64,000 bases of DNA, taken from assembly GCA_002168225.1 (NCBI GenBank), contig NHBH01000001.1, positions 1,126,370-1,190,369 on the forward strand, read 5' to 3'. Shown one piece after another: positions 52,120-57,752 of this stretch. The translations under genes were made by a program, and so were the position numbers. The notes below the pieces were generated by a model. That model ran no database searches and had not been told where the DNA came from. It saw only the letters and a list, made by a program, of their open reading frames with translations. The stretch comes from Micavibrio sp. TMED2 (GTDB lineage: Bacteria; Pseudomonadota; Alphaproteobacteria; TMED2). Positions within the stretch are counted from its first letter, which is position 1. Every line of letters begins with the position of its first letter.

Positions 52120-52749
52120 ATGAATGATCGCGACTATCAACAAGATTCTGATGCAACATTAGATGTTGCGAAAAAAGCTCTTGAGGCTCTGGAGCGACAA
52201 CAGTCAGGCGATACAGATAAGCCAGGAAGGGCGGCTCTTTATAAAATTTTTATCGGAAAAGATTTTGAAAAATATAAAAATACGTATTTGAGTTTTTATA
52301 AGAAAAAAAAGAAAATAGTGCTTAGCTTTTGTTTTCTTCCTCTTTTATCTCCATTCGTTTGGTTTGTGTATAGAAAGCTTTATCTATATTCAGCGTTATA
52401 TGGATCAATAACGATGTTTATTGTATTTGGATCAATAATGCTCAAAATCAGAGGGTTATGGGATATTTTGCCTTTGTGGTTTCTTTTGCGGTTTTTTTTC
52501 TGTGGCTTTGGCAGGTTCTTTGTTCTCTTAAGATTCAAGGGCCTGTATGAAAATTTTGTCAATGAGCGGATCGATGCCAAAAAATACTTTAAAGATATTG
52601 GCGGAGTGAACATTTGGGGCGCCAGATTGGCTGCTATTATTGTTATTGCAATCTTGGGTGTTTTATCGGTTCCATTCGTTTATTTATACTTTCATTTCTG
52701 CACTATTCCTGGAGTTCAGTGCGGCATAAGTCTGAAGCTCAGTTTTTAG
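52120..52749 (+). CDS. DUF2628-like membrane protein in AT-rich insertion
   Basis: YKKKKKIVLSF...FVWFVYRKLYLY resembles DUF2628 core; region markedly AT-rich compared with flanks. Confidence 0.45.
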   Translation: MNDRDYQQDSDATLDVAKKALEALERQQSGDTDKPGRAALYKIFIGKDFEKYKNTYLSFYKKKKKIVLSFCFLPLLSPFVWFVYRKLYLYSALYGSITMFIVFGSIMLKIRGLWDILPLWFLLRFFFCGFGRFFVLLRFKGLYENFVNERIDAKKYFKDIGGVNIWGARLAAIIVIAILGVLSVPFVYLYFHFCTIPGVQCGISLKLSF

Positions 52750-53841: not shown

Positions 53842-55527
53842 TTATTGCTGCTCGCGCAACTCGTGCAGGAAGGCTTCGGTTTCGGCTTTCAGGCCTTCTG
53901 CGTCGATCGCGAGTCGGCTTGCCGCACTGTTCAGATCATTGGCAGATTGCGAAGTCTCGTTGATCCCCTGGATCACGCCATCAACGTGGTTGGTGACATC
54001 GGTGGTGCTTGATGACGCCTCATGGGCGGAACGGGCAATCTCGACCGTGGAGGCACCCTGTTCCTCAACCGCGGCGGCAATACCGGTCGCGATATCATCG
54101 ATCTGGGTGATGATCTGGGCGATCTTCTCGTTCGCCTTGACCGCATTCAGGGTCGCTTCCTGAATCGCGGTTATCTGGGTGGTGATCTCTTCCGTTGCCT
54201 GTGCGGTCTGACCGGCGAGTGATTTCACCTCGGAGGCAACAACGGCGAAGCCTTTGCCTGCCTCACCGGCGCGTGCGGCCTCAATGGTGGCATTGAGGGC
54301 GAGCAGGTTGGTCTGTTCGGCAATGGCGCTGATCAGGGCAGCAACTTCACCGATCTTGGTAACGGCGGTGCGCAGGCTCTCAATGGTGACGCTGTTGGCC
54401 TCGGATTCGGCAACTGCCTGTTTGGTGATCGTGGTCGCTTGACTGACCTGACGGGTGATCTCGCTGATCGAGCTGGACAGCTCTTCCGCCGCAGCGGCAA
54501 CCGTCTGTACGTTGGAGGCTGCGGCATTGGCAGATTCAGCCACGGAGTTGATTTGTTCATGGCTGCGTGAGGCAGATTGCGCCATGGTGTCGGCGGTGGC
54601 CTGCAATTCGGTACTGGCATCGGAGACACCGAGCAGGACATGGCGGGCTCGGCCATCAAACTCATCCGCCAGCGCAATGATTTGATCTGAACGTTGTCTG
54701 ACTTCCTGTTGGTCCTGTTCGCGCTGTTGCTGCAGCAACTCGCGTCCGCGCTGGGCTTCATGGAACCCGGCAAGGGTTCGAGCCATCGCACCGATCTCGT
54801 CCTGCAGTTCCATATGAGGTATATTCTCGGTGATCTGGCCGAATGCCAACTGGTCCATGACCTGCCGCAGATCGGCCAGCGGATCGAGCAGGCGCTTGAT
54901 GATGTAGGACGCCAGAAAGGCAATCAGGACCGTCACCAGAATGCCGATAACGATAATATTCTTGATGATCTGGTCGCCATCCTCGCCATAGGCGGAATAG
55001 GGCGTGCTGATCATGATGGCGCCGACTGGAATGCCGGTGGCATTTCTGATTGGCTCAATGCCAATGAATTGCCGTTCACCGAAGGCAATGGCCTGGGTGT
55101 AGATCGGCTTGCCACCACCTACCGCCGGGTCGAGAACGGTCTGCCCATATTCACCGACCAGCCGCGGATAGAAACGGTCGTTCAGGCCGGTAGGTATATC
55201 GACGGTGGTGAGATAGATTTCCGAGCCCTGATAAACCGTGATCTCGACTTCATTGACCAGCGAACTGATCTGTTCGAGCATATCGGTGTCGACGGCAAAC
55301 GATCCGCGCCGCAGCACGCCATTGTCCAGCTCAAACGGTTCCGCACTGATGCTGTTGAAATAGTTGAAAATGATGGCCATGTAACTGGCCTGCCGACCGA
55401 CCGCGTTATTCTCGAGAATAAACCGTACCTGCAGCGCAGCAGGTGCAATCAATGCCGCCGCCAAAGCGATCAGGCAGACCATCGTGAACAGAGTAATGCG
55501 GGCGGAGAGGCTGAGTGATTTAATCAT
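53842..55527 (-). CDS. methyl-accepting chemotaxis protein
   Basis: N-terminal TM/sensor region, HAMP, highly conserved MCP signalling domain ([35 protein letters not shown]). Confidence 0.8.
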
Positions 55528-55882
55528 TATGGCCGCGATACGGCTAAAGGTGCGAGACTATGGACAAGGCTGGAAAGAGCGCCCAGCAACTGATGAAACA
55601 ACATGTTTTAATTCCTGCCCATTCTTAGCACGCATGCTTCCGATTTACAGTACTAAGATTTAAGCTTTTTACAGCCTGAGTAACAGGGATAGCAAATATG
55701 CGGCCCATTGTATGTGTGCAAATGTGACGCTGATGGCACGCGGTCTTCGCGGCAATCGGGTAATTTTTCATATTTCGGTCATTGCACTTGGCTATAAATC
55801 GCCATAGTCTTCTCCCTGTAGGCCGTTATTTGAGCGGCTACATCAGACCTACTGATCACAGTTGAATCAGAGTTGAGCTGAA

Positions 55883-55999
55883 ATGAGCATGAAGCGCATT
55901 ACCATCGCAGGAATTGGACCGGCCAATCAGGCCACTGGTCTATCCTCGCTTCTGCTCGACCTTCTTCGACTTAACGGCCCCTGGGCTCGTTTCGGCTGA
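55883..55999 (+). promoter_or_regulatory. candidate leuA leader peptide ORF (Leu-codon run), possible attenuator
   Basis: 38-codon ORF MSMKRITIAGIGPANQATGLSSLLLDLLRLNGPWARFG with 6 Leu in 8 codons, about 185 nt upstream of leuA. Confidence 0.4.
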
Positions 56000-56183
56000 A
56001 TGCATCTGACGAATTTGCAATAATACAGCCAGCGCTCAGGGGATAATTCAAGCGGTGGCGGATCGTGCATCGTCTGTTTACGCTTTTTCCCAGAATTTAA
56101 TGCTATTCCTGCTGGAGGGCAGGCACCGGCTTGGGCTATTACCCGTGACCAGAGCTTGAGCGGTGGAACCGGAGCAACAGAAT

Positions 56184-57752
56184 ATGAGTACGACCAATAA
56201 AGTTGAGCAGTCTGATCGTGAGCAGGTGATCATTTTCGATACCACCCTGCGTGATGGTGAACAGTCACCCGGCTGCTCCATGAACCTCGCTGAAAAACTG
56301 CGGGTTGCCGCCCAACTCGAAGCCATGGGCGTCGATGTGATCGAGGCCGGGTTTCCGGCTGCATCGAATGGTGATTTCGAAGCCGTCCAGCGCATTGCCG
56401 AGCAGGCGAAGAAGGCCCGTATCACCGGGCTGTCGCGGGCGAGTGAGAAAGACATCACCCGTGCCGCCGAGGCGGTAAAACCGGCCCCGCTCAACCGCAT
56501 TCACACCTTTATCTCCACCTCGCCGCTGCATATGGAGCACAAGCTGCGCATGACGCCGGAGCAGGTGCTGGAGCGGGTCGAGAACAGCGTTAGCCTGGCA
56601 CGCAATCTGGTCGAGGATGTGGAGTGGTCCGCCGAGGACGGCACCCGTACTGATCATGATTTCCTGTGCCGCTGTGTCGAGACGGCGATCAAATGTGGTG
56701 CCCGTACGATCAATATCCCGGATACCGTCGGCTATACCGTGCCGGAGGAATATTACGCTCTGATCAAGATGCTGTTTGACCGGGTGCCGAATATCGACAA
56801 GGCGGTGCTGTCTGTTCACTGTCATAATGATCTGGGGCTGGCCGTTGCCAATACCCTGTCCGGTCTGCAGGCCGGTGCCCGTCAGGTCGAGTGCACGATC
56901 AATGGTATCGGCGAACGTGCCGGTAATGCGGCGCTCGAAGAGGTGGTGATGGCGCTCCGCACCCGTGCCGAGCTGTTCAATCTCGACACCAATATCGATT
57001 CTACTCAGATCACCAAGGCATCGCGCCTGATCTCAACCATCACCGGTTTCTCGGTCCAGCCGAACAAGGCAATCGTCGGGGCCAATGCCTTTGCCCATGA
57101 GAGCGGCATCCATCAGGACGGCATGCTCAAACATGCCGGTACCTATGAAATCATGACCCCGGCTTCCGTTGGTCTGACCGAGAGCAATCTGGTGCTCGGC
57201 AAGCATTCCGGTCGCCATGCGTTCCGCGAGAAGCTGGCCGAGCTCGGCTATGAGCTGGGTGACAATGCCCTCAATGATGCTTTCCAGCGGTTCAAGGATC
57301 TGGCCGACCGCAAGAAGGATGTCTATGACGAGGATCTGATTGCGCTGGTCGATGATGAGATGGGCCACGACAACGACTTCCTGCGCTTCAAATCCGTACG
57401 CATTCAGGCCGGCAGCGAAGGCCCGCAGGTCGCCAAGCTGGAACTATTCATTGACGGCGAGGTCAAGGCGGTTGAAACCGAAGGGCAGGGGCCGGTCGAT
57501 GCCTGTTTCCGGGCCATGCGGGCGCTGTTCCCCCATGATGCCGTGCTTGAGCGGTATGAGGTGAAGGCGGTTACCGGCGGCACGGATGCCCAGGCAGAGG
57601 TTGTGGTCAAGCTCACCGAAAACGGCAAATCCGTGCTCGGCTCCGGTGCCGATATTGATACGCTGGTGGCCAGTTGCCGCGCCTATGTCCATGCGCTGAA
57701 CAAGCTGATCGTCAAGCGTCAGCGCAAGGCGCCGGACGCGCTCACCGCCTGA
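56184..57752 (+). CDS. leuA: 2-isopropylmalate synthase
   Basis: IIFDTTLRDGEQSPG, HCHNDLGLAVAN signatures; ATG 56184 with GGAG 9 nt upstream. Confidence 0.85.
   Translation: MSTTNKVEQSDREQVIIFDTTLRDGEQSPGCSMNLAEKLRVAAQLEAMGVDVIEAGFPAASNGDFEAVQRIAEQAKKARITGLSRASEKDITRAAEAVKPAPLNRIHTFISTSPLHMEHKLRMTPEQVLERVENSVSLARNLVEDVEWSAEDGTRTDHDFLCRCVETAIKCGARTINIPDTVGYTVPEEYYALIKMLFDRVPNIDKAVLSVHCHNDLGLAVANTLSGLQAGARQVECTINGIGERAGNAALEEVVMALRTRAELFNLDTNIDSTQITKASRLISTITGFSVQPNKAIVGANAFAHESGIHQDGMLKHAGTYEIMTPASVGLTESNLVLGKHSGRHAFREKLAELGYELGDNALNDAFQRFKDLADRKKDVYDEDLIALVDDEMGHDNDFLRFKSVRIQAGSEGPQVAKLELFIDGEVKAVETEGQGPVDACFRAMRALFPHDAVLERYEVKAVTGGTDAQAEVVVKLTENGKSVLGSGADIDTLVASCRAYVHALNKLIVKRQRKAPDALTA

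Follow-up and report, generated by a model that had tools for sequence, protein, structure and literature searches.

Leader-peptide attenuation is a textbook form of gene control known chiefly from enterobacterial operons, with few analysed cases in Alphaproteobacteria. The leuA locus of Micavibrio sp. TMED2 raises the question of whether such a leader senses leucine here, and through which output it would reach the gene. The locus lies in a 64,000-nt stretch of contig NHBH01000001.1, which is called the window throughout and is numbered from its first letter. An original prediction, made from the letters alone, had proposed that a small leucine-rich open reading frame (ORF) upstream of leuA governs the gene by transcription attenuation. 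Comparative and folding analyses indicate that the element is probably a ribosome-mediated, leucine-sensing leader controlling leuA and part of a conserved alphaproteobacterial leader family. The regulatory principle is ordinary; the interest lies in a widespread, uncurated and mostly terminator-less family and in the unusual topology predicted for the lineage of the window.

The leuA locus and its leader ORF

The leuA gene (56184..57752, + strand) encodes 2-isopropylmalate synthase, and its homologues carry the Pfam domains HMGL-like, HCS_D2 and LeuA_dimer. A mechanical ORF list puts its start at a GTG at 56163; the ATG is at 56184. The gene is flanked by a methyl-accepting chemotaxis-like gene on the opposite strand (53842-55527) and, downstream, by mreB (from 57971), and is therefore monocistronic here. 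The 38-codon ORF that had been placed about 185 nt upstream of leuA is real: it occupies 55883..55999 (+), encodes MSMKRITIAGIGPANQATGLSSLLLDLLRLNGPWARFG, ends in TGA at 55997-55999, has an alternative in-frame ATG at 55889, and is separated from the leuA ATG by a spacer of 184 nt. Codons 23-30 (55949-55972) read CTT CTG CTC GAC CTT CTT CGA CTT, so the claim of six Leu codons in eight is exact, and with the CTA at 55940 the ORF has seven Leu codons in eleven. The full Leu-codon run (L20, L23, L24, L25, L27, L28 and L30; 55940..55972, +) forms the core of a strand that we call B (55919-55975), and its 3' end, CUU-CGA-CUU-A (55964-55973), coincides with the family-invariant columns of our alignment A1. 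Such density is rare and goes beyond chance, as at least six Leu in eight codons occur at just 3 loci among the 127,954 stop-free eight-codon stretches of the 64 kb, all six reading frames included.

The 38-residue leader peptide has no match in Pfam or NCBIfam. Its Shine-Dalgarno (SD) sequence is weak, and the copy of the ORF in the closest relative is left uncalled by gene callers. The locus represents an annotation gap, in which both a small ORF and an RNA element have been overlooked by gene callers and Rfam.

Closer relatives, obtained by protein search, are the loci L161 (98% LeuA identity), L166 (86%, partial sequence), L162 (84%) and L163 (77%). Between the Leu run and the leuA ATG, the window and L161 are identical at 236 of 238 nt (99%), compared with 82% identity at third codon positions of leuA and 55 of 63 positions in the 5' part of the leader. 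Only two differences in 238 nt, set against 82% at third positions, indicate that the whole downstream leader is under strong constraint. Within the leader ORF, a GGCC/GGCC stem at 55921-55933 is GGUC/GACC in L161; this compensatory pair suggests a genuine apical stem in the leader hairpin.

Further upstream, the block CATTGCACTTGGCTATAAATCGCCATAGTC (55778-55818) is kept in L161 and holds TTGCAC and TATAAA/CATAGT hexamers at a non-canonical spacing; a promoter scan found nothing. The same intergenic region contains, on the opposite strand and 5' of the chemotaxis-receptor-like gene, a second Leu-dense small ORF (55669-55755, -; ending AAYLLSLLLRL*), which makes up one of the three Leu-dense stretches of the window. 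L161 does not keep its Leu codons: two codons differ there non-synonymously (L to F and R to W), and the ORF is probably a product of chance. The third stretch (52625-52654, +) encodes DWLLLLLLQS.

A leuA leader family and its hairpin P1

To place the leader in a wider context, 160 alphaproteobacterial leuA loci were sampled, 80 from species-representative genomes and 80 from metagenomes, none exceeding 72% LeuA identity. In most of them, leuA is preceded by a small ORF that ends in a Leu run and a stereotyped tail such as LLLRLTRP*, LLLLLSRP* or LRLSGP*, and several retain just an L-R-L core. At the nucleotide level, the shared core consists of Leu codons, C(G/U)(A/C)-CUU-A, 3-6 variable nt, CCCCUGA, a variable inner hairpin and YUCAGGGG. 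In its general form the end of the in-frame Leu-rich run is CUN-CNN-CUU with an A after it, to which CUU-CGA-CUU-A of the window conforms. A covariance model of this core, R1, was built from 50 family sequences with the window excluded. In the window it matches 55947..56047 (+) with 39.9 bits (E 8e-9), 137 nt before the leuA ATG, and this is the sole significant match in 64 kb. Matches were found in 62/80 genome loci and about 63/80 metagenome loci (about 125/160 together), and every plus-strand match in the 160 loci lies immediately 5' of leuA. Rfam gave no match at E up to 10 for the window (55400-56400) and none relevant at E up to 0.1 for nine typical members; neither the curated Leu_leader model (RF00512) nor the Leu-Phe leader model (RF01743) is matched by the window or by those nine. 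A leuA control element that is present throughout the class, at about 125 of 160 loci, is therefore without an Rfam model.

The conservation in relatives on which the original prediction depended is found across Alphaproteobacteria, and it is conservation in frame. Among 115 members, the last 12 codons hold on average 5.2 in-frame Leu codons, compared with 1.7 and 0.2 for the remaining two frames; 106/115 have an upstream ATG, the stop codon lies exactly 12 nt after the last CUU codon in 104/115, and the median leader ORF has a length of 44 aa. Codon choice is also biased, with CUU making up 40% of the Leu codons in family leaders and 4.8% in leuA, an 8-fold difference. In one sampled locus, L139, a sub-threshold match to BjrC68, a Bradyrhizobiaceae sRNA, was seen about the leuA 3' end (2806-2878, +; 24.7 bits against a gathering threshold of 39, E 0.027).

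Beyond the ORF, the family core includes a conserved hairpin, P1, with the general form CCCCUGR.../...YUCAGGGG starting 4-6 nt after CUUA. The window conforms, with P1 at 55978..56042 (+) and a base helix of CCCCUGGGC (55978-86) with GCUCAGGGG (56034-42); inner stems are formed by 55989-91/56031-33, 55994-98/56026-30 and 56001-04/56016-19 (all +), and the whole hairpin is computed at -27 kcal/mol. Across the family, 93% of alignment cells are paired and 6 of 10 base pairs vary on both sides, which 0 of 500 shuffles match. Members with a UAG stop have the compensating 3' arm YUAGGGG, and the P1 arms of L162 are likewise compensated (GCCUCCGGGC/GCCCGGAGGC). The A after CUU is invariant although it is the first letter of a variable codon. 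The interior of P1 varies in sequence and length and lacks the conserved unpaired nucleotides expected of a ligand pocket. With its near-invariant sequence, P1 may serve as a pause hairpin or a factor site.

In 99/115 members (for example L020, L065 and L077) the leader ends in Pro-UGA (C-CCC-UGA) inside this conserved helix; the window equivalent is 55979-55984. Termination is slow at a UGA that follows a C-terminal proline, and in E. coli the sequence CCC_UGA is prone to frameshifting.

The window departs from the family at precisely this point. The family UGA is UGG there (55982-84), which still pairs in P1 as G.U, and the ORF therefore extends five codons further, so that its stop lies 27 nt after the CUU codon rather than 12 nt after it and within the P1 5' arm. 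UGG or UGU at the same position also occurs in L161, L166, L040, L055, L002 and L071, with the helix kept. In addition, the spacer from P1 to leuA is 141 nt in the window against a family median of 61 nt, and the Leu strand lacks the pairing that marks short-spacer members. Judged by its sequence, the window is a diverged family member.

Predicted ribosome-dependent folding in the window

The spacer dyads and T run had been proposed to act as a terminator and antiterminator. The terminator half of this proposal stands as a candidate: the quoted T run is 56084-56088 (CGCTTTTTCC) and directly follows a hairpin, T, so that T (56050-56085) with U5 (56084-56088) forms a putative intrinsic terminator (56050..56088, +) at the core of a strand C (56042-56088). 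T is a weak, imperfect 13-bp hairpin of -13.8 kcal/mol, rich in G.U pairs; its internal loops are the reason why a consensus terminator scan is silent on it. The L161 copy is identical. The antiterminator half has to be relocated, as the predicted competitor of T is not a second spacer dyad but the 5' half of the leader itself. This strand A (55870..55916, +) comprises the leader ribosome-binding site (RBS), the start codon and the first 11 codons, and can pair with strand B or with region C. The A:B duplex is computed at -35.7 kcal/mol, a value equalled by 6/1000 shuffles, and the A:C duplex at -34.0 kcal/mol, equalled by 0/1000 shuffles and by 2.9% of genome windows. A:C pairing engages both arms of T through about 35 bp in five blocks. 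A further hairpin, X (56028..56059, +; 56028-36 with 56051-59; -13.8 kcal/mol), is mutually exclusive with both P1 and T.

The effect of a translating ribosome on these alternatives was modelled by folding nascent RNA ending at 56085 under a ribosome-sized mask, with seven assumed 5' ends and three footprints; the resulting probabilities describe equilibrium thermodynamics, not kinetics. In the ribosome-free RNA, T forms with a probability of about 0.95. With the A site on L23, L24, L25 or L27, and mostly also on L28, this probability falls to 0.00-0.12; with the ribosome past the Leu run (N31 or P33) it is again about 0.9, and with the ribosome at the stop codon it is 0.7-0.96 for most 5' ends. 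The mutually exclusive structures that the original prediction had anticipated are thus present in the folding model, in which T forms unless a ribosome covers codons 23-27 and mostly 28, and the same pattern is obtained for L161. On a Leu-codon stall T would be lost because the 5' half of the leader is then no longer paired with the Leu run and pairs with T. In silico, this is the logic of a classical attenuator.

Some positions behave less uniformly. At L20, L30 and the stop codon, the predicted outcome depends on which transcription start is assumed. With the A site on L30, P1 is melted and X can replace T for some 5' ends; with the 5' end at 55865 the probability of X is 0.98, and X is absent with longer 5' ends. 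The A:C helix must close around the stalled ribosome, and a queued second ribosome over strand A weakens the predicted effect.

These results can be assembled into the mechanism that we favour for the window. In ribosome-free RNA, strand A would pair with the Leu-codon strand B, P1 would form, and C would fold as T followed by U5, ending transcription ahead of leuA. Under a shortage of charged tRNA-Leu, a ribosome would pause on Leu codons 23-28 and cover B; the freed strand A would then pair with both arms of T, T would not form, and RNA polymerase would proceed into leuA. An undelayed ribosome would reach the stop codon and leave, whereupon A:B would re-form and T would terminate transcription.

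A second layer of control is predicted at leuA itself, where the RBS and the 3' half of T are complementary. The leuA translation-initiation region (56166..56195, +; SD GGAG at 56171-56174, ATG at 56184) pairs with an anti-RBS strand (56060..56089, +) that overlaps the 3' half of T. In the minimum free energy (MFE) structure this helix has 25 bp, and the probability that the SD is unpaired is 0.04; the duplex is computed at -24.8 kcal/mol, a value equalled by 19/1000 dinucleotide shuffles and 0.4% of genome windows. It encloses two spacer hairpins (+), one formed by 56108-13/56118-23 and the other, P4, by 56124-37/56153-65. L162 has a homologue of P4, flanked by UUC...GAA, inside an analogous anti-RBS helix of different sequence, so RBS occlusion may be an older feature of the clade to which the window belongs. 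Opening the leuA RBS in the window is predicted to cost 6.5 kcal/mol without a ribosome and 8.3-9.2 kcal/mol in stalled states. Because this cost is high throughout, translation of even read-through RNA is predicted to be poor, and because it stays within 6.5-9.2 kcal/mol wherever the ribosome stands, T is the sole ribosome-position-dependent output predicted in the window. The anti-RBS helix therefore appears to be a constitutive layer in the folding model. Two other schemes were set aside for the window. A chain of P1, X, T and the anti-RBS strand acting as a translational switch is ruled out by an RBS opening cost that is independent of ribosome position, and the pairing statistics do not support a helix formed directly between the Leu run and the leuA RBS (z +0.6; own-versus-swapped rank 0.81).

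Regulatory output in the family and competing readings

A hairpin with a U-rich tail between leader and leuA is found in 5/115 members, the window and L161 included, and a terminator-like hairpin with a U tract is lacking in L162, L163 and L166, the next relatives. Intrinsic termination is thus not the conserved output of the family and is at best lineage-specific. Of the original proposal of a Leu leader with transcription attenuation, the ORF and the Leu run hold, the mutually exclusive folds are supported in the folding model of the window, and the candidate terminator does not extend to the family. In short-spacer members a long helix joins the Leu-codon strand to the spacer and reaches or includes the leuA SD, with P1 at its apex (for example L020, L091, L035, L098, L105, L018 and L003). 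Leaders pair better with their own spacers than with swapped ones (-19.6 versus -15.7 kcal/mol; permutation z -11.7), and predicted RBS accessibility rises modestly from 0.45 to 0.50 with an early stall that masks the Leu strand and reaches 0.55 if the leader strand is left out. The leuA RBS seems to be the target of the family as a whole: in most members the output would likely be the unmasking of an RBS region that is paired with the Leu-codon strand, and translational attenuation is what we infer for this majority, with moderate support from these pairing and accessibility models.

Could the window itself work in this way? In a purely translational scheme, a stalled ribosome would unmask the leuA RBS on full-length mRNA, the mode of ermC or cat leaders and one also proposed for the actinobacterial LEU element, and the U run would be an anti-Shine-Dalgarno strand, not a terminator tail. 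The family patterns just described favour this scheme, as do the 110/115 members that lack a terminator, the use of the U run by the 25-bp anti-RBS helix of the window, and the analogous helix of L162 with its different sequence. However, RBS sequestration by default is predicted for the window but its release on stalling is not, as the opening cost drops in no stalled state, and the Leu strand shows no complementarity to the region where leuA translation starts. The accessibility effects across the family are also small, and RNAalifold applied to 35 short-spacer members recovers P1 alone as a consensus helix, the long leader-spacer helix having no common register. We consider a purely translational output rather unlikely for the window. 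A more distant proposal is that the CCCCUGA/UCAGGGG hairpin is a site for a protein or small ligand, or controls Rho access or RNA decay, and that the Leu codons occur there mainly because CUC/CUU strings resemble an anti-Shine-Dalgarno sequence, with leucine stalling not being the signal. It would account for a P1 conserved in sequence beyond pairing, for the invariant A after CUU and for the members that retain the L-R-L core alone, and the authors of a comparable actinobacterial element preferred a protein and cited mutational data contrary to classical attenuation (PMC1262725). It sits poorly with a reading frame that is kept together with its ATG, with Leu enrichment confined to one frame, and with a stop codon that stays in place even in UAG variants, which need two compensating changes in the 3' arm; the variable interior of P1, without conserved unpaired ligand-pocket nucleotides, also speaks against it. 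This proposal is improbable.

The simplest reading, in which the ORF is a chance feature of a structured 5' UTR without any part in regulation, could appeal to the weak leader SD and to the absence of a gene call in L161. It is effectively refuted by the comparative data: the significance of the R1 match, the recurrence of the element at most sampled loci, the frame-specific codon statistics, and 99% identity to L161 over 238 nt, a length for which the expected neutral divergence is about 18%.

We return to the leucine-sensing leader, with T as its predicted output in the window. A more specific and only tentative version of this reading is that the window holds a divergent representative of a widespread, uncurated class of leuA leaders, with a Pro-UGA stop in a near-invariant helix and mostly terminator-independent, and that in the lineage of the window the element was rewired into a transcription attenuator that uses the leader's own initiation region as an antiterminator closing round the stalled ribosome. 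If this were true, one ancestral sensor would have been coupled to different outputs by lineage, and the invariant helix that contains the stop would have a function beyond present models of attenuation, for instance in pausing, in controlling termination or recycling, or in binding a factor. Given the terminator-less majority, a single leucine sensor does seem to be wired to different outputs, and comparison between lineages could show how attenuators evolve.

Among described systems, the enterobacterial leu leader (leuL; Rfam Leu_leader, RF00512) offers the closest functional parallel. It too has a short ORF with a Leu run directly 5' of leuA, and there, as predicted for the window, ribosome pausing on Leu codons selects between alternative hairpins and a terminator. 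However, there is no sequence or structure match to the Rfam model. The Leu codons of the window are CUU/CUC, whereas leuL has a CUA run; the predicted antiterminator strand of the window lies 5' of the regulatory codons and takes in the region where the leader itself starts; and the family has an additional conserved hairpin, P1, which carries the stop codon in most members, and mostly lacks a terminator. The element of the window is in its predicted function a Leu leader of the leuL kind but not a member of Rfam Leu_leader. In ermC/cat translational attenuation, a stalled leader ribosome opens a sequestered RBS, which is the likely mode in the terminator-less family majority. Unlike the stalling considered here, that of ermC/cat depends on drug and peptide, not on hungry codons, and in the window no stall-dependent opening of the RBS is predicted.

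Our literature search found no description of an alphaproteobacterial leuA leader and only one comparable leuA element, from Actinobacteria; an earlier prediction is possible. Vitreschak et al. reportedly predicted attenuators for branched-chain amino acid genes in alpha-proteobacteria in 2004. The actinobacterial LEU element (Seliverstov et al. 2005, PMC1262725) has an upstream ORF with a Leu-codon run before leuA and no obvious terminator. Its base stem is formed between that run and the Shine-Dalgarno box of leuA and encloses an internal structured domain, which is described as a pseudoknot; the authors were sceptical of attenuation by a ribosome and put forward a protein (PMC1262725). This architecture resembles the long base helix and P1 of the short-spacer members. 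The LEU element belongs to a different phylum, however, and the window has no direct pairing of the Leu run with the Shine-Dalgarno sequence. Within the same class, the trpE(G) attenuator of Sinorhizobium meliloti (trpL/rnTrpL) has a leader peptide and depends on the ribosome to attenuate transcription, and it shows that classical attenuation operates in Alphaproteobacteria (PMC6614838). It differs in its amino acid and RNA, and its terminator is clear and conserved, whereas the leuA family mostly has none.

Two further features of the spacer and the leuA start were followed up. In the window, a 34-codon ORF (56055-56159, +) begins with a GTG 13 nt after an SD-like AGGGGA in the P1 3' arm, spans the anti-RBS strand and P4, is fairly Leu-rich (LMLFLL and LGLL), and stops 24 nt before the leuA ATG. 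A relay in which the AGGGGA of the P1 3' arm serves as SD for this ORF was rejected as a family feature: a start codon 4-13 nt after GGGG occurs in 13/115 members, with a flat distribution, and in none of L162, L163 and L166; these three and most of the family also lack an ORF comparable to that of the window. The leuA start itself often lies within CCCAUGA(G/C)C (e.g., L023, L035, L065, L099 and L160), which resembles the P1 5' arm CCCCUGA(G)C. Pairing of a freed P1 3' arm with CCCAUGA at the leuA start was also set aside, as its signal is weak (mean z -0.38) and the motif is absent from the window. A leuA start of the CCCAUGA(G/C)C type is found in 20% of family members versus 4% of non-members.
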